Source: Glaucostegus cemiculus (Eukaryota). From it: a stretch of DNA of 64,000 nucleotides. The notes beneath the pieces were generated by a model. That model was given only the letters and a program-made list of their open reading frames with translations, ran no database searches and was not told the origin of the DNA. The stretch's first letter is position 1; the number at the start of each line of letters is the position of its first letter. Below, piece by piece: positions 2,790-54,288 of this stretch. A program made the position numbers and the translations under genes. The stretch lies in assembly GCA_976551045.1 (NCBI GenBank), contig CDPCPM010000164.1:6696001-6760000 (forward strand), given 5' to 3'.

Positions 2790-3505
2790 ACTCCCAAGTG
2801 CTTACAATCTTTTGGGGGAACTCAGCAGGTCTAGCAGCATCTATGGGAGGAAAGGAAATGTCGATATTTCGGGTCAAATGCTTGCATCAGGACCTCAATT
2901 CCTTTCATCCCACAGATGCTACTCATGATAGTGTGAACCATTAGGGGGGAGATGAATGGTAGATGGAACCAGATGGGGGAATGGAGGGGGCGCGAGGAGG
3001 TAGCCTGAGGGTGAACTGTGGGTTTAGTCAGTGGGTAGAACCAGGTGGAGGGGTGGGAGAATGCGGTTAAAATGGGTTATTGGGGTCTGAAGGGGGAAGA
3101 GGGACTGGCAGACTTTGTATTCCTGCTTATCACACTCCCAGCTGTCTCCACCTTCACCCTCCACTCCCCTCGCCTCACTCCATCTGCCCCCTTTTTGTTT
3201 CCTCTTGTCTGCCTCCATCTGTCATCTTGATCCCACTCCTCTCCCTCCCCTATCTGGCTCCATCTGCTCATCATCCTTCTCCCCCTCCTTGTTCCACCAA
3301 TCACTTCTAACTCCTGCCTCATCACTCCCCGTTCCCTCTTAATACACACCATCCCCCCTCTCCACTCTCAGTCCTGATGCAGGGTCTTGACCCAAAACAT
3401 TGGCAATTCCTTTCCCCCCACAGAAGTTGCTTAACCCGCTGAGTTCCTCCAGCAGATTGTTTGTTACCCCAGATTCCAGCACCTGCAGTCTTTTGTGCCT
3501 CCACC
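2790..3505. mobile_element. Penelope-like pLTR fragments in inverted arrangement
   Basis: Fold-back unit 2800-2925, G-rich inverted segment, pyrimidine tract and a degenerate HHR (cagtcctgatgcagggtcttgacccaaaac). Confidence 0.7.
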
Positions 3506-14440: not shown

Positions 14441-15871
14441 ATGAAAGGGAATTAATCCATTTTTTGACTGAATGGTGCAACTAGTTCTCCAAAGGAAATT
14501 AAAGCATTAGTTTTGCATTCTTGTTACATCAATGAACCAACGCTGCTCAGACTGTATTACCCTCACACATATGCACCTTGCCATTCTGGTTCAGCAGTGC
14601 CGAGAGAGGTGTCCGATTAATTCCATCCAACATTAATTAAGTCTGCATTCCAACAATTATCCAAAATTAAAACCACCTTGAGCTACAACTGGCTTCAACA
14701 GCAAACAAATCTCTGTAAAAGATGTAAAAAAAATCCATATCTCTACGTTTTAGGCACATTCAGGTAAACTTGTTGAGATGTTTGGATATCATTGGGAATA
14801 ATGGGCCAAGTGGTCTCCATCTGTGTTTTATCATTTAATGACCTGTGCCAACTGGATCTTTGAACTTGCTTTTTGTGATAACTTTTTTTTAAATAAGGTT
14901 ATTCTGAAATTCTAAGTTTAGATTGTTGGGTTTGCAATCCAGCTGACTAATCCTTCAAATTTTAAAATGCATTTTTGTTCTCTCTGACTTTTGAATAGAT
15001 ATTCTTCCACTGTGCTAAATTGTTTTCATTTTGTTCTTCCAAGCATCGATCATAATAAAACTTTCAATGCCACATATATAAAATACAGCAAGCATAAAGG
15101 CTTAAAACACCATTATCTTCTCCTTCAGCTATTCTGCTTGCAGGAAATATTAACTTTGCTAATTAGTTTAGCGTTATAATGATTAAAAGTACGTTCTGAG
15201 AAGTTAAATCACCTCTGCCCTGAGTCACATGCTGAGTGATAAATGCAGAGCTTTCTCTGACTGCAACGTGCAAGCTCAGTGCTGTGACCGTAACTTGATA
15301 AGTCAATCAACACTGCCAGCCCTTCAGTGCATAATTAACTTCGCCGATTGCTACTTCAGAGGAACATTTTGCAGCAATTTATTTGACTCAATAAGGGTAA
15401 AATAATAAAAGTTTCACTTCATGCAGCAGAGCAGAAAATCAGGTCACCTTTGTAGAATCATGCCAAGAACTGCAAAATGGGATGTGCGTTAATCATACAA
15501 GACGGTCTTCAGTACTCCTTAATACACAGGCTTTTTCAGGATTGTGGTAGGAGGAGGTAAAAGCACAGGCAAAGTTATCCTAGGTTAAGGACTGACGGAA
15601 GCCTGAAATGGGTAAAGGGGCAAGGGAATTTTGGAAGAGAGTTACAGAGGAAGACAAGATAATGTAAGGTTCATTAAACTCCCAGAAAGGATTGTGTACT
15701 CAACAAACAATAAATCCATCCATCCAAGGGAAAGTGCGAGGTAGGTTCTTTACAAATTTACCTCTATTTGTATAGCATGGTGATAGGCCCTTCTGGCCCA
15801 ATGAGTGATTACACCCAAGTTAACCTACTAACCTGTACATCTCCCTTATGTAGACACAATAGACAGCAGAT

Positions 15872-16113
15872 CAGAATCAGAATCAGTTTTTATTGTCACT
15901 ACTATATACACATTCAGTATGCATAGGAGCGAAATACCATACTCCACAGAACAAGGTTCTCGTCACATTAAAAAAGAAACAAACAATGAAAGACACAAGG
16001 ACAGAAAGACACTAAAAACATTGGAACCACAAAATTAAATAGCGATTCAAATAAACAATCTTAAAGTGAGCGTACTGAGGCAGCAGACAACGGACATTCA
16101 AAGTGCTGGTGCA
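15872..16113 (-). mobile_element. Rex1 3'UTR-only insertion with (CTGATT)n tail, inside a Penelope fold-back unit
   Basis: Related to the 3'UTR of 29341-31950; host continuity agacacaatagacagcagat|..|gatgctgtaatcc. Confidence 0.75.
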
Positions 16114-24999: not shown

Positions 25000-26225
25000 T
25001 CTCAGAATCAGAACCATTATCACTGACTTAGAGGAGGTGAAATTTGTTGTTCAGCAGCAACAGTACAGCGCAAAGACAGAGAATTATTATAAATTAGAAA
25101 ACAACTAAATAATGCAAAATAAAGGAATAACAGGTAGTGTTCCTGGGTTGCTGGACCATTCAGAAATCAGATGATGGAGAGGAGGAAGCTGTTCCTGAAT
25201 CGCTGAGTGTGGGTCTCCAGGCTCCTGTACCTCCTCCCCGATGGTAGTAACAAGAAGAGGGCATGTCCCAGATGGTGAGGGTCCTTAGTGATGGATGCCA
25301 CCTTCTTGAGGCAACACCTATTAAAGATGTCCTTGATGGTGGGGAGGGTTGTGCCTGTGATGGAGCTGGCTGAGTCTACAACCCTCTGCAGCCGCTTGCG
25401 ATCCCGTGCACTGGAGCCTCCATACCAGGCGGTGATGCAACCAGTCAGAATGCTCTCCATTGTTGCTCTATACCAAATCTCTTCAAACACCTAACGACGT
25501 AGAGCCACTGGTGTGCTTTCTTCATGAGAGCATCAATGTGTTGGGCCCAGGATAGATCCTCTGAGATGTTGACGCCCTGGAACTTGAAACCGCTCACCCT
25601 TTCCACCCCTGGTGTGTGTTCTCTTGACTTCCCCTTCCTGAAGTCCACTATCAGTTCCTTGATCCTGCTGACGTTAAGTGCGAGGTTGTTGTTGTGACAC
25701 CACTCAACCAGCTGATCTCACTCTCACACGCCTCCTCGGCGCCATCTGAGATTCTACCAACAACAGTGGTGTCAGTGGCGAATTTATAGATGGTGTTTGA
25801 GCTGTCCCCTGCCACACAGTCAATGAGTGTAGAAAGAACAGAGCGGTGGGCTAAGCACGCATCCACGAGGTGTGCCTGTGTTGATTGTCAGTGAGGAGGA
25901 GATGTTTCTACCGATCTGCACTGACTGTGGTCTCCCAATAAGGAAGTCAAGGATCCAGTTGCAGAAGCCCAGGTTTTAAAGCTTTATTGATTAGGACTGA
26001 GGGAATGATGGCGTTAAACAGCAGCCTGACTTATGTCTTGGGGTTGTCTAGGTATTCTAAGCAAAGTGAAGAGCCAGTGAGATTGTATCTGCTGTAGACC
26101 TGTTGCGTCGGTAGATGAATTGCAGGGGGTCCAGGTCTTTATTCAGGCGGGTGTTCATTCTAGCAGTAACCAACCTCTCAAAGCACTTCATTACGGTAGA
26201 TGAGTGTGCTACCGGGCGATAGTCA
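25000..26225 (-). mobile_element. Rex1-type LINE RT/3' fragment (frameshifted)
   Basis: NTIYKFATDTTVVGRIS, VERVSGFKFQGVNISEDLSW, ESILTGCITAWYG, LLPSGRRYRSL. Confidence 0.85.
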
Positions 26226-27609: not shown

Positions 27610-27836
27610 TGAGACACAAGAAATTCTGTAGATGCTGGAATTTGGAGCAATATACAAAAAGTGCAGGAGGAACTCAGCAGGTCAGGCAGCATCACGGAGG
27701 GAAATAAACAGTTCACGTTTTGGGCTGAGACCCTTCATCAGGAATGGAAAAGGGCGGAACGAAAAGCTGAAGAGCAGACAAGATCACAGAAGCCCTCTTC
27801 CTTTCCAGTCCTGATGAAGGGTCTCGACCCGAAACA
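27610..27836. mobile_element. Penelope-like pLTR with two inverted HHR motifs
   Basis: Minus HHR 27709-27745 and plus cagtcctgatgaagggtctcgacccgaaac 27806-27835 (truncated before the cleavage site). Confidence 0.75.
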
Positions 27837-28810
27837 AAGTCTTCTATTGTAGGGGGTGAACGCGTACATTGATCTATTGAAGCGTATATACCAATACTTG
27901 CTTCTAGATAGCTGACATTCAATACACGTTTAGTTACCTTGAAAGCAATAAAGGTGTCTACTGCTGCTAGCAAGAGAAGACTGAGGTCACATTTGATTTA
28001 CATGCCTTACAGCTTGTGTTACATAATTCACAATCCAGCAGTGTGAAAGACCAATAAGCTGGCACTCTGGGACCAGGAATTCAAGATACTGCTGGTTCCA
28101 AATCTTCCTGATTCACCTCACACTCTTTGAAAGAATTGCACCTGAGACATTGATAATTTCTTTCAAACATCACAAGGCTGACTGCTGACTAATTTTTAAT
28201 ATGATTCAACTCTGCCAACTGAGGGTTTATACTTAAAATTGTGGTTTTTTTCTGCAATACACTAGAAAACTTCATGCTCTTGGTGAGGGAAAGGGGCAAG
28301 GAAGGTATTCGGAAACATCGACTGTTTATTTCGCTCCATAGATGCTGTCTGACCGGCTGCGTTCCTCCAGCATTTACATTCCAGAATTACGGATTTTTAG
28401 GGAATGACAAAGTCAGCGTTTATTGCCTGATCCCAAATGCCCCTTGAGAAGGTGTTAATGAGTCATGTGTAACTGAGAGGCTTGTCATCTCAGAGGGTAG
28501 TTAAGATTCAACGACACAGAGCTAGACTGGAGTCACTTATAGGTCAGACCAGGTGAGAACAGCAAATTACCTCCCCTGAAAGACATTAGTGAACCAAATG
28601 GATTTTTATGATAATGTGAAAACTTTAGTGGCCATCATTACTAACACCAGCTGTTGTTCCAAGTTACTAACAAAACCTGGATTCCAAAGCTACCATTTGA
28701 TCTCAGACTTATTAGTCTAGGCCTCTGCAATACCAGTTCAGTAACCTAGTCACTGCACCACCGTCATACCCATGCATATAGGTGCTGGAGAAGGCTACAT
28801 GGCCCACCAT

Positions 28811-28930
28811 GGAGACACAAGAGATTCTGCAGATGCTGGAATCTGGGGCAACACACACAAAATGCTGGAGGAACTTGGTAGGTCAGGCAGCATCGACAGA
28901 AGGAAATAAACAGTCGATGTTTCGGGTCTA
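28811..28930 (-). mobile_element. Penelope-like pLTR end, truncated within the HHR
   Basis: ggagacacaagagattctgcagatgctggaatc..aaacagtcgatgtttcgggtc. Confidence 0.75.
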
Positions 28931-29602
28931 ACTCTACTAACTAATTCAACTAACTCTATAAGCCAGAGCCAGAATAACATTTAAAACAGTGTCTATATGT
29001 ATGCTATTGCCAATGAATGTTGGGGGATTTGTGTCGGGATAACGCAGAGGGTTATTGGAGGACTGGCATGGACTCAGTGGAAAAAAAGGCCCTGTTTCTG
29101 TGCTGTGCAACTCCATGACTTAACTGAAACAAATGTACAAGAACAGCAACAGGAATATACTTGTGAGGGGAATTTGCATGATACTTTATGTCTACAGCTG
29201 GAAACTTCACATTTCTGGCACCAGTATTACGTCGAACACAATGCCCAGACAGGAATCAATGGCTGTCAGCAGATTTCTTGGAACACCCTGCACTTCTAGG
29301 TTACCCTCCTGGTCACACACTACCCTGACTTCAAAATATACAGCAGGCTGTTGTCCCTAAGTGCCTAAAATCTGCCGCCATCATACCTGTTCCTAAGAAG
29401 TCTCCTCCAATGTGTCTGAATGACTACCGTCCCATAGCTCTAACACCGGTTGTCATGAAATGCTTTGAGAGGCTAGTTATGAAGCACATTAGAGCCATCC
29501 TCCCCCCATCCTTGGATCCTCATCAGTATGCTTATCAGGCAAACAGGTCCACCGATGATGCAGTCTCCTCTGCCATGCACTCTGCACTATATCACTTAGA
29601 GA

Positions 29603-30630
29603 AGAATCAGAATCAGAATCAGAATCAGAATCAGTTTTATTGTCACAACCACATACATACAAAGTATGCAGAGGAGCGAGATACCGTCCTCCTCAGGTGC
29701 TCGTCCCATACAAAAAAATGACATAACAACCAACAGAGACACATACACACTTGGCAGAATACATAGTATAGATCATTACACCTTAAAAGCTAAGGGGATT
29801 GAACTTAAATTCAGGATCGATTTATCGATTTTCACTTACACATATACATGTGCAAAAGACATCAAAGACAATAAAGGACACCTGGACAAAAACATCAAAA
29901 CATTAACAGCCCCCCTGCCTCACCCCGCACCGACGACCACTTCCAACCCCCACAGTCCTACAACCTCAGGGCCCACAGACCATCAACAACCTCCAGCCCA
30001 CAGTCCGACCACCTCCGGCCCCTTCGCCTCCGGCACCCCCTCCAGCCCACAGTCCGACCACCTCCGGCCCACAGTCCGACCACCTCCGGCACCTTCGCCT
30101 CCGACTCCGCAGTCCGACGACCTCCGGACCCGAACTCCAGCTCCGCAGTCCGACGACCTCCGACCTGAACTCCGGCCTCACATTCCGACGACCTCTGGCC
30201 CCGAACTACGGCCTCGCAGTCCGACGACCTCCGACCCGAATTCCGGCCTCACAGTCCGACGACCTCCGACCCGAATTCTGACTCCGCAGGCCGACCACCT
30301 CCGACCCGAATTCCGACTCCGCAGGCCGACCACCTCCGACCCGAATTCTGGCCTCGCAGGCCGACCACCTCCGGCCCGAGCAGCCCCCCCACCGCCCGCA
30401 TCCCGACGCCACCACGAGGCTCCCGGGCCTTCAAGACGCTGCCGCCTCCGACGAGCTCCGACGAGCCGTCGGAGCCGACAGTGCCGACAACGACTCCATA
30501 AAACGGCACACAAACAACAGAACAAAGAACACACAAGAAAAAAACTACAGAAAACACTAGAAGACTAACAAAAAAACACAAGGACTACAGACCTGGGAGA
30601 GGCCGCTGCAACCAGGTGCGCCGCCATGTT
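29603..30630 (-). mobile_element. Non-autonomous non-LTR element sharing the Rex1 3' tail, inserted antisense
   Basis: Five AGAATC repeats at 29603-29632, ~130-200 bp similar to the LINE 3' end, internal minisatellite, 5' end AACATGGCGGCGC; host RT resumes (HLE|KDSY). Confidence 0.85.
29925..30380. repeat. CpG-rich minisatellite (35-bp unit ccgacgacctccgacccgaattccggcctcgcagt; shorter ~22-bp units to the left)
   Basis: Repeats read directly, e.g. four successive 35-bp units at 30221-30360. Confidence 0.9.
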
Positions 30631-32159
30631 AAAAAAAAAGGATTCATACTGTTGACTGCTATTCATCGACTTCAGCTCCGCTTTCAATACCATCATCCCG
30701 CAACAGCTTATCAGGAAGTTGAGCGCTCTGGGCATTAACTCTCCTCTCTGCAACTGGATACTGGATTTTCTAACTTGCAGGCCGCAGTCAGTCAAAATTG
30801 GTGAAAACACCTCAAGCACCATCACACTGAGCACTGGCTCCCCACAGGGTTGTGTGCTCAGTCCGCTCCTGTTCACCTTGTTGACTCACGACTGTGAGGC
30901 CAGATCCAGCTCCAACCGCATTGTTAAATCTGCCGATGACACGACAGTGGTGGGTCTTGTCACGAATGACGATGAGTCGGACTACAGAGAGGAGGTGAAA
31001 CAACTAGCCGTGTGGTGTTATGACAACAACCTCTACTTGAATGTGGATAAAACCAAGGAGATGATAGTGGATTTTAGGAGGGGTCACTGTGTGCACACCC
31101 CGCTGACCATCAACGGGTCTGCTGTGGAACAAGTACGCAGCACCAAGTTCCTGGGGGTGCACATCACCAACAACCTGACCTGGTCCACTAACATTACAGC
31201 CCTCACGAAGAAAGCTCAGAAACGCCTCTACTTCCTGCGGAGACAGAGGAAAGCGTACCCCCATCCCTCCGTCATGAAAACCTTCTACAGGGGGACCATT
31301 GAGAGCATCCTACCTCAATGTATCACTGTTTGGTTTGGAAGCTGCTCAGCTGCTGGGTGGAAGTCCCTCCAGAAGATAGTTAGGGCTGCGGAGTGGATCA
31401 TAGGTGTCTCGTTTCCATCCCTCGCAGACATATACAAAGACCGTTGTGTGAGGAAGACCAAAAGCATAATGGCCGACCCTTCTCACCCCTCCCACCACCT
31501 CTTCACAATTTTGCCATCAGGGAGGAGGCTTAAATGTATCAGGGCAAGAACAACCAGGCTGAACAGTAGCTTCTTTCCGCAAGCCATCAGAACTGCAAAC
31601 TCTCTCATCCCTCCATCTTCCTTTGTTAACACTAAGAGATGCTAGGTGCACAGAAATGCACCAGCACTTTAAATGCCCGACACCAGCCCGTTCACTTTAA
31701 TAACTATTTATTTATTTACCGGCCATTTTTAATTTAATCTGCGTACTAATTTAATTTTAATTTCCGTAGCTTTTAATGTTTAATGTTTTTTAATGTTTAT
31801 TCTGTCAAGTGTGTATGTGTGTCTCTGTTGGTTGTTATGTTAATTTATGGGACGAGCACCTGAGGAGGACGGTATCTCGCTCCTATGCATACTATGTATG
31901 TATATGGTTGTGACAATAAAACTGATTCTGATTCTGATTCTGATTCTGATATATCATCGGTTCTTCATCATTGATTCGAAATCCTAGAACTCTCTAACCA
32001 GTAGCAGTGAGGCAGTAACTTCACCGCAAGGACTGCAGTGATGCAGGAGGCCAGTTCACCATCACCTTCTCCAGGCCGGTTAGGGATGGGCAATAACACT
32101 GGCCTTAATAACACCACCTACATCCCGTAAAAAAATGTAATATCTTTGAAGTAACATCA

Positions 32160-33230
32160 ACCATTCCTTTCCCTCCATAGATGCTGCTCAACCCACTGAG
32201 GTCCTCCTGTAGCTTATTTATTGCGTTCTCTCTTTCCCAGTTCTCCCAAAGGATCTTCAACTTGAAATGTTTCCTTCTGTACACCTGCTGCCTGACCTGC
32301 TGAGTATTTCCAACACTTTCAGTTTGGAAAGAGAAGCAGAGTTAAAATTTTGCCTCAAAATGTCAGAACCGGGCAAGAGAAAAAAAACCAAGTTAGCTTT
32401 AAGTTGCAGAAAGTGTGGGACAGGTAGGACAGTGGGTAAATCTCTGATAAGGTGAGGTTAGAGATGCCATGTGAATAAGTTGTAGCAGTTACCCAGTTAA
32501 TGGGGGCAATTAGAGGAATAAATAAAAGAACAAAATTAATGAGGATGGCAGGGAGTGAAAATACAAACAACGGAATAGGAAATAGGGCAAAATGCAGGGC
32601 TGTAGGATGTGCCCAGCAGATGTGCTAATGGAGAGGAAGACTGCACCAATGTCAAAGAAGGATGAGTTACAGCAAATGTGGCCAGTTCTGATACAGACAG
32701 AGAATGCGATTTACCTGAAGTTTTAGAACTTGTTATTTGGTCTAGAAGTCTAGAACATGCCCAGATGGAAGAGGAGATGCTGTTTCTCAACCTTACGTTG
32801 GGCCTCGCTATAGAAGGAAGCCACTGGGAGAGAGGTCAGAGTGGGAGTGGGATGAGAATTGAACCGACAGACAACAAGGGGCTCTGAGCTGCCCTTGTGG
32901 ACTGATTGCAGGTGCTCCACATGGTGGTCACCCAATCTGAGTTTGGTTTCTCCAGGGTAGAGGAGACCACATGTTGTGAACACCGAATGCACTATATTAG
33001 AGTGGAAGAAATGCAAGTGAATAGCTCTTCACTTGGAAGGTTTGCTTGGGTCCCTGGATGTTGGGAAGAGGTAGAAGGATGGATATTGCATGTCCTGTGG
33101 CTACATTAGCAATAACCATATGAAAGGGAGAGGCTGGTAGGTACGAGAAGGGTGGACAAGGGATCATAGTGGGAACATGCTGAAAGAGGAAGCAAAGGGA
33201 AGAGCTGTCTGTTGATGAATTGTTGAACTA
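32160..33230 (-). mobile_element. Penelope-like element: GIY-YIG endonuclease remnant plus pLTR pieces
   Basis: ORF 32750-33016: CGLLYPGETKLRLGDHHVEHLQSV..FNSH..EAQRKVEKQHLLFHLG. Confidence 0.8.
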
Positions 33231-52778: not shown

Positions 52779-53394
52779 CTGGAATATAAAAATTAAATGA
52801 CAATAAACAACAAGACAACTTGTAGAAGACTCTGACAATTGATCAATTATATTATAGTTTTCCATGTTTTGCTAAAGCTTCCGTTTTGAAATAAACCAGA
52901 ATTTTGTAACCAAATGAAAGATTTGCTGGAATGGTGAAATATTACGACTCAAGATGTTTGCAAGTTTGATTACATTTCTTTCCTTAAGTTATTCACTTTC
53001 CCTCATGAAGGCAGCGACTCATGCTAGAACAAAGCAGGAATTAGCAGCTCTCGGATACCTTGATCAAATCTCCATTCCCAGTCTGAATTGAGACTGTACA
53101 TCAGTAGGCATCTTAACTGTGAAACTGCTGGGGAGTCGGGGGAGAGGTTGCATGTAGACTGCATGTCAGGGGGTAGGGAAAGTGCATGACCAGCTGAGCC
53201 TAATTCTGTCCACACACTTTACAGTATGACACTAACCTACAACAGGAAAGAAACACCAGAATGATATTTTCCCCCACTCTCTTGTCCATGACACTCAAGT
53301 ATACAAAACTTGCTGCTACTTTAATACAAGTTTGGAGAATATACTGGGAGTTACATAGAATTTGCAATGCAGAAACAGCCAATTCAACCCAATT

Positions 53395-54288
53395 AGAATC
53401 AGAATCAGTTTTTATTGTCACAACCATATACATACATAGTATGCATAGGAGCGAGATACCGTCTTCCTCAGGTGCTCGTCCCATAAAATAACATAACAAC
53501 CAACAGAGACACACATACACACTTGACAGAATAAACATTTCAAAACATTAGACATTAAAAGCTACGGAAGTTAAAATTAAATTAGTACACAGATTAAATT
53601 AAAAATAGCCGGTAAATAAATAAATAGTTATTAAAAAGTGAACGGGCTGGTGTCGGGCATTTAAAGTGCTGGTGCATTTCTGTGCACCTAGCATCTCTTA
53701 GTGTTAACAAAGGAAGATGGAGGGATGAGAGAGTTTGCAGTTCTGATGGCTTGCAGAAAGAAGCTATTGTTCAGCCTGGTCGTTCTTGCCCTGATACATT
53801 TAAGCCTCCTCCCTGATGGCAAAATTGTGAAGAGGTGGTGGGAGGGGTGAGAAGGGTCGGCCATTATGCTTTTGGTCTTCCTCACACAACGGTCTTTGTA
53901 TATGTCTGTGAGGGATGGAAGCGAGACACCTATGATCCACTCCGCAGCCCTAACTATCTTCTGGAGGGACTTCCGCCCAGCAGCTGAGCAGCTTCCAAAC
54001 CAAACAGTGATACATTGAGTTAGGATGCTCTCAATGGTCCCCCTATAGAAGGTTTTCATGACGGAGGGATGGGGGTACGCTTTCCTCAGTCTCCGCAGGA
54101 AGTAGAGGCGTTTCTGAGCTTTCTTCGTGAGGGCCGTAATGTTAGTGGACCAGGTCAGGTCGTCGGTGATGTGCACCCCCAGGAACTTGGTGCTGCGTAC
54201 TTGTTCCACAACAGTCCCGTTGATGGTCAGCGGGGCGTGCACACAGTGACCCCTCCTAAAATCCACTATCATCTCCTTGGTTTTATCC
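53395..54288 (-). mobile_element. Young Rex1/Babar LINE 3' copy in a GPAM intron
   Basis: 194-aa ORF differs from 30719-31645 at 12 positions; same 3'UTR and (ctgatt)n tail; 5'-truncated. Confidence 0.93.

Follow-up and report, generated by a model that had tools for sequence, protein, structure and literature searches.

Within the window, the 64,000-nucleotide stretch of Glaucostegus cemiculus DNA analysed here, the reverse transcriptase (RT) frame of a LINE is interrupted by about 1 kb of antisense DNA whose 3' end resembles that of its host, which raises the question of what this insert is, where its two ends come from and which LINE moves it. The answer that we favour, with a probability of roughly 0.85, is that the insert is a full-length, young, ORF-less copy made of the 5' UTR and the 3' end of a Rex1-like LINE, likely transcribed by Pol II from a YY1-type head and likely mobilised in trans via its tail.

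The initial annotation had described an antisense insert at 29603-30630 that splits a Rex1 RT near HLE/KDSY. Such an insert is present in the host RT frame: the commonest form of the empty site in other LINE copies reads ...HLEK/KDSY..., which places the insert between the two Lys codons of HLEKKDSY, and all 37 empty-site matches, from other copies of the host LINE, run through the junction without an insert. Measured against the empty-site form, the net added DNA is 1,033 bp (29607-30639), with a duplication at the insertion site of 0-2 bp (TSD or microhomology). The insert itself was therefore correctly recognised, but its bounds omitted a leader of seven extra T and included 4 nt of tail microhomology. 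Its parts and those of the host LINE are the following.

29340..29606, + strand: host LINE before the insertion, 5'-truncated; starts near LINE nt 1960-1980
29603..29634, - strand: (CTGATT)5.3 terminal repeat, of which 29603-29606 are shared with the target as microhomology
29635..29810, - strand: newer 3' tail, acquired from the LINE family, with L172/L159-type copies as the nearest match
29636-29641, - strand: AATAAA of the newer tail, within 29635..29810
29643-29679, - strand: terminal hairpin in the newer tail, within 29635..29810
29811..29906, - strand: relict of the previous 3' tail, a T-rich block plus the decayed old terminus at 29811-29841
29915..30377, - strand: CpG-rich minisatellite with 22- and 35-bp periods, variable among copies
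30378..30630, - strand: head, homologous to the Rex1-like LINE 5' UTR by alignment to LINE copies with a shuffle control
30619..30630, - strand: YY1-type motif from the first base of the conserved head, AAC in the locus copy and AAG in the family; binding predicted
30631..30639, - strand: 5' T9 run, of which 7 T are the element leader and 2 T the target site, by empty-site comparison
30638..31950, + strand: host LINE after the insertion: rest of the RT, DUF1891 region, 3' UTR and (CTGATT)4.8

The likeness of the insert tail to the 3' end of the host LINE, noticed from the start, holds at 87.5% over 208 nt (insert nt 821-1026 against 31748-31950). Equally, the middle is the GC-rich minisatellite without RT that had been described, with a 22-bp array of 6.0 copies (29949-30090) and a 35-bp array of 7.7 copies (30108-30379), and its CpG o/e is 1.13 as compared with 0.27 for the window. 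Another short interspersed repeat, in several copies and both orientations, flanks the locus (27611-27835, 28312-28375, 28812-28926 and 32153-32326).

A one-off rearrangement would be single-copy, and this insert is not: exact genome matches number 917 for a 25-nt head word, 1,079 for a CpG-free head word and 2,206 for an element-specific tail word, while the reversed control of each gave 0. With the first 232 nt as query, 1,743 candidates were obtained, and the 40 that were scored are all 99-100% identical. An earlier tail word was rejected as a counter of elements, since it matched mostly LINE fragments and is present in 2/58 elements; its 30 loci all lie on one contig, duplicates included. 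In a sample of 90 copies, the first 90 of the 917 head-word loci in contig order, the tail was found within the fetched stretch in 86, at 676-1,295 nt, giving an element length of 0.7-1.3 kb, and no LINE-protein match (tblastn) lies inside the element in any of the 90. Divergence from the majority sequence, with the repeat excluded, has a median of 0.7-0.8% in 30 copies, and the median pairwise distance is 1.9%. The signs of TPRT-type retroposition are 5' truncation, a variable terminal repeat and short TSDs. Of 30 loci chosen by their tail, 17 are truncated at the 5' end and 13 extend into the first 12 nt, a proportion that agrees with the ratio of 49% between the word counts, and TSDs of at least 5 bp, short but above chance, occur in 17/58 copies against 7.6% of mismatched pairs. 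The insert at the locus is one of more than 2,000 young, ORF-less, dispersed copies, some of them 5'-truncated. At L066 and L073, a minisatellite at 2961-3311 is 67-70% like that of the element and probably belongs to an older relative.

A non-coding element of about 1 kb with a LINE-derived tail fits a SINE, a class in which tails are often replaced (PMC5786205). Seen from its 3' side, a Pol III SINE of the classical kind, with a borrowed tail of Rex1 origin and a small-RNA head that had escaped recognition, would look similar. The head leaves this the faintest of chances. It aligns from its own first base to the first base of the LINE, at 72-80% over 89-178 nt from LINE nt 1 in 20/20 full-length copies, with alignment scores of 97-114.5 against a shuffle maximum of 30-34.5 (nt 3-130, locus copy); the homology is strong over nt 1-130 and weak to about nt 250, and the main-frame ATG of the LINE is not kept. 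No tRNA was found in the insert, Rfam on the insert gave nothing near the gathering score (two weak snoRNA matches, E 3.4 and 4.7), and an A box and a B box are absent from the first 250 nt in 58/58 copies, in line with the earlier statement that no tRNA-like boxes are visible and with a head that is not of tRNA, 5S or 7SL type. T7 runs, which would stop Pol III transcription, stand at head nt 55 and 87, among nine T4+ runs in all. Because the head is homologous to the LINE, the Pol III SINE reading is largely refuted, and the initial view that this is not a classical SINE stands.

The 5' start had also been read as fitting the YY1 consensus. The motif is there, as CCGCCATGTT at 30621-30630 of the locus copy, but this AAC start is a rare variant and not the family form, 54/58 copies reading AAGATGGCGGCG. 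From the motif we infer that YY1 may bind the head and that Pol II may start there. In the first ~140 nt of the LINE copies L077, L088 and L085, an ATG inside the YY1-type motif opens, by eye, a short hydrophobic upstream frame.

Full-length copies of the partner LINE were reached by walking upstream from the host copy, and 20 were fetched whole. The LINE is 3.5 kb long, with a single APE-RT-DUF1891 frame of 1,037 codons from nt 136 and no ORF1; the domains identified in L061 are Exo_endo_phos (below the Pfam cutoff), RVT_1 and PF09004. Among the 120 matches listed, most are fish RVT_1+PF09004 proteins, the best with full coverage being ~72% identical, and none is a protein named Rex1. The (CTGATT)n end is found in 20/20 full-length copies, and 20/20 are 81-91% identical to the element tail. 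Rex1/Babar elements are described with a single frame holding an AP endonuclease and an RT, without ORF1 (PMC13343379, PMC6274825), and with a conserved 3' UTR followed by an oligonucleotide repeat of variable length (PMC6274825), and DUF1891 is listed among the domains of the LINEs studied in PMC7846101. Since the single frame without ORF1 and the repeat-ended 3' UTR fit Rex1, the partner would best be called Rex1-like, a label given by structure and not by an RT tree. With both ends matching 20/20 LINEs, no small-RNA head and a dispersed distribution, the bipartite reading of LINE 5' UTR head plus LINE 3' tail is upheld, and mobilisation in trans by the LINE protein is likely.

A LINE head word has 104 genome matches, and 27/30 sampled loci stay LINE through the 1.5 kb examined. 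The 1,037-codon frame is intact in 7/20 full-length copies (subfamily B), which differ by 0-1.9%, a distance like the median pairwise distance of the element (1.9%). These intact, near-identical copies (L157, L158, L161, L162, L167, L169 and L173) indicate recent or current activity. Three other loci depart from the full-length form: L116 combines 120 nt of LINE head with a tail signal at nt 280 and may be a short bipartite copy of independent origin; L166 is a LINE of 3.0 kb with an internal deletion; and in the LINE copy L078 the 3' end lies inverted within the 5' region.

The interrupted host copy is of another kind. It has a stop at 30653-30655, SADD replaces FADD, and it is 97% identical to the older subfamily A and 91% to the youngest, intact subfamily B. 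It is a dead member of an older subfamily, which would not itself be a likely driver, and the younger subfamily with intact frames appears the likelier driver of the element. The suggestion that the host LINE is the likely partner thus holds for the family, the same LINE family being found at both element ends, but not for this copy. A dead sub-lineage defined by a shared stop was considered and rejected: the stop occurs in 16/21 scored near-identical host relatives but in 2/14 of a set chosen elsewhere, and its frequency in the former reflects selection by the query at a CpG. Elsewhere in the window, there are one more copy from the host LINE family, also 5'-truncated and 97% identical (53391-54288, - strand), an older tail-only LINE fragment at 78% (15870-15997, - strand) and a distant RT fragment at 66% (25632-25965, - strand).

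The element has an older sister lineage as well. A variant head pattern yields 819 more loci; of 30 sampled, 29 are short elements that share head and repeat with the young family but mostly end in a different 3' sequence, and in none of the 30 does a LINE frame follow the variant head. The old-tail word has 1,030 genome matches, and among 30 of these loci none is a LINE carrying the old tail, which is why the original parent LINE is one that we infer. Two RT fragments of 42-44% upstream of old-tail loci were set aside as not contiguous with the element. In comparison with today's LINE, the head of the old lineage is 77-83% identical and its tail 73-84%, about equally far, as expected of one old internal deletion.

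The young family retains this older 3' end in decayed form, with its AATAAA broken, one degenerate repeat unit and the middle of the old tail deleted. The relict is present in 86/90 copies, and the 38-nt alignment at its junction scores 36, a value reached by 0/2000 shuffles. In L258 and L262 (2/30 of the variant-head sample), the old terminus is directly followed by the new tail, which in L262 is 96-98% identical to L159/L172-type LINEs; the element tail, for its part, is 87-89% identical to the intact subfamily B versus 91-95% to the older L159/L172 type. In a tree of 250-nt heads (8 young, 29 old and 4 LINE copies, others left out; midpoint root on the LINE branch), the young family and L258/L262 are nested inside old-tail lineages, with 100/99 for the enclosing clade and only 89/89 for the sister link. 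In old, new and LINE tails alike, AATAAA is preceded by a terminal hairpin, in which 96.4% of cells are paired, as high in 3/500 shuffles, the structure having been derived from the same sequences; one pair has a two-sided change, in 4/17 sequences, and the single-sequence fold z ranges from -3.1 to +0.6, positive in 3/25. Conservation of this hairpin has modest support.

These data bear on a simpler account, in which the element is an internal-deletion derivative of its own host LINE subfamily and is drawn to insert into its partner. Both element ends do match the host LINE family, and 2/86 other element copies have both flanks in this LINE family. The head, though, has diverged by ~20%, whereas L262 differs from the tail donor by 2-4%; the element contains a relict second tail; and the host LINE is 97% identical to the older subfamily A and has a stop. 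Under an assumed genomic share of 0.36-1%, the 2/86 nested copies have a P of 0.04-0.21, so the count does not support targeting of the partner LINE, and the nesting at this locus is probably chance, which suffices. Because the head and the older tail are ~77-84% identical to the LINE and the present tail was captured later, the host family did not give rise to the element by simple deletion, and we regard that account as highly improbable. Close associations of the two kinds of repeat were also seen at L002, an element head-to-head with a truncated LINE of the host family, at L225, with antisense LINE sequence at the element's 5' junction, and at L226, a truncated element copy within a LINE of the host family.

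In front of the head lies a homopolymer of variable length. The core GCCAT has a single match, at head nt 1, behind a T-leader that measures 0-64 T in 90 copies and is commonest, when not zero, at 7-10 (28/90); it is at least 4 T long in 51 copies, at least 13 in 18, below 4 in 39 and missing in 29. The LINE has at this position a leader of 3-59 A, with a median of 8 (three A being built into the search word) and at least 13 in 7/30. The old lineage starts with ATCC in 13/30 and with TTTT in 9/30. Leader length was probably set by slippage, either where transcription starts or as cDNA synthesis is completed.

The long T- and A-runs could instead be target-site runs or expansions that arose after insertion or in assembly, in a family otherwise real. 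Long-read assemblies misstate homopolymers, and L015-L017 (G000:C85), a tandem duplication with copies 4-8 kb apart and identical flanks, have leaders of T10, T10 and T13; since these duplicated copies differ and long homopolymers mutate faster than T7, part of the leader spread may have arisen in these ways. As an explanation of the leader as a whole, it is nevertheless unlikely. Where the TSD is clear (8/50 copies with a core of at least 4, against a null of 3.7%), the T run lies inside the TSD and no more than 3 T stand in the far flank; an internal T7 run is 7 in 72/75 scored copies, while the leader spans 0-64; the element gives T and the LINE gives A at the same position; and presence of the run follows sub-lineage, 14/16 copies of one variant class being without it. 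T microhomology at the 5' junction was seen in 5/8 copies against a null of 31%, a comparison of too few copies.

The minisatellite spans 212-648 nt, with 37 different lengths in 52 scored copies. As for a possible origin from the start of the LINE frame, nt 260-420 scores above the shuffle maximum in only 2/12 comparisons. Through it runs an antisense frame that, counted from an ATG, is 185-360 codons long in 54/58 copies and 321 codons long in the locus copy, and a translated frame of ~300 codons that aids mobility would make the element a coding passenger of the HAL1/HeT-A kind. For this there is a very slight chance. The span across the minisatellite is spread over 0, 1 and 2 mod 3 in 17, 16 and 24 of 57 copies, which means that the frame is not kept, the repeat consensus is without a stop triplet on the antisense-frame strand, and the frame has no Pfam match. 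It was rejected as coding and is regarded as a by-product of the stop-free repeat.

The history that we propose for the ORF-less element would begin with an old internal deletion in a relative of today's LINE, which left a head and a tail that are now ~77-84% identical to it. The minisatellite would then have grown in the gap between head and tail, and some sub-lineages would have gained the T-leader in place of the ATCC start. Later, a whole old-type element would have been fused to the 5' side of the final ~200 nt of an L159/L172-type LINE, either by a template switch in reverse transcription or by sense insertion into a LINE 3' UTR with read-through, after which its own AATAAA and the middle of its own tail would have been lost. 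This retailed form would have given the latest burst, with LINE subfamily B as its probable driver and the LINE protein reverse-transcribing the element in trans through the shared tail.

Primate SVA elements are non-coding, Pol II-type and LINE-mobilised, with a central GC/CpG-rich VNTR of variable length. The element resembles them in being non-coding, in its variable central GC/CpG-rich repeat and in its presumed Pol II-type transcription and mobilisation by a LINE, but it has no Alu-like or retroviral part, both of its ends come from the partner LINE and it ends in a microsatellite, not in poly(A). By its sequence organisation, it is a bipartite, ORF-less, non-autonomous LINE from a Rex1-like parent. 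RIME/Ingi, NARTc/L1Tc, Bov-A, RTESINE1/2 and the Vingi and R2 derivatives likewise consist only of LINE 5' and 3' parts, with no ORF and no small-RNA head, and for these, as for the element, Pol II transcription and trans-mobilisation are presumed (PMC5786205). According to that survey, only RTE, Ingi, Vingi and R2 had been reported to give such derivatives, and whether the restriction to four clades reflects sampling bias or the mode of 5'-end formation is left open (Kojima 2018, PMC5786205). The element differs from the bipartite LINEs described there in its Rex1-like parent, outside the four listed clades, in its 200-650-nt CpG minisatellite, two serial tails and 5' homopolymer leader, and in a YY1-type start where 5' ribozymes are discussed (PMC5786205). 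IdioSINE2 and ERE4B have, like the element, added a new LINE-derived tail while keeping an earlier LINE-derived fragment; in the element, by contrast, what has persisted is the old 3' terminus itself, the donor is of the same LINE lineage as the recipient, and the stages before, between and after are all present in one genome (PMC5786205).

At its 5' end, the element recalls mammalian L1, which begins G2-6...CAAGATGGCGGA (PMC5381506) and in human has a YY1 site at nt 9-20 that governs the start (PMC11602158): in both, the same motif stands only a few bases in from the 5' end, after a homopolymer that is short and variable (PMC5381506, PMC11602158), and the old element lineage reads CCAAGATGGCGGC, close to the mammalian L1 start (PMC5381506). 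In contrast to mammalian L1, the element belongs to another LINE clade, the leader consists of T in the element and of A in the LINE, with lengths of up to ~60 nt, and a role of YY1 is presumed by analogy. A search of the openly accessible literature, Repbase and Dfam aside, which may hold such a case, found no report of a Rex1-derived non-autonomous family or of a 5' homopolymer. It is possible, though we rate the whole combination below even odds, that Rex1 is a fifth clade with ORF-less bipartite passengers, one with an L1-like YY1 start, a leader that lengthens itself, made of T in the passengers but of A in their LINE, about ten times as many promoter-bearing copies as the LINE, and a way of keeping up with it through grafting of the current tail, every stage being preserved in one genome.

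A Rex1-type example that has a YY1-type start, and not a known ribozyme, is directly relevant to the question of why only four clades have been reported (Kojima 2018, PMC5786205). The dated series of tail renewal, with old, intermediate and new forms next to intact helper LINEs in the same genome, makes recognition by the LINE protein testable. Both regulatory variation and variation in length are likely to arise from the ~1,000 full-length CpG-island-like inserts, each of which contains a variable repeat.
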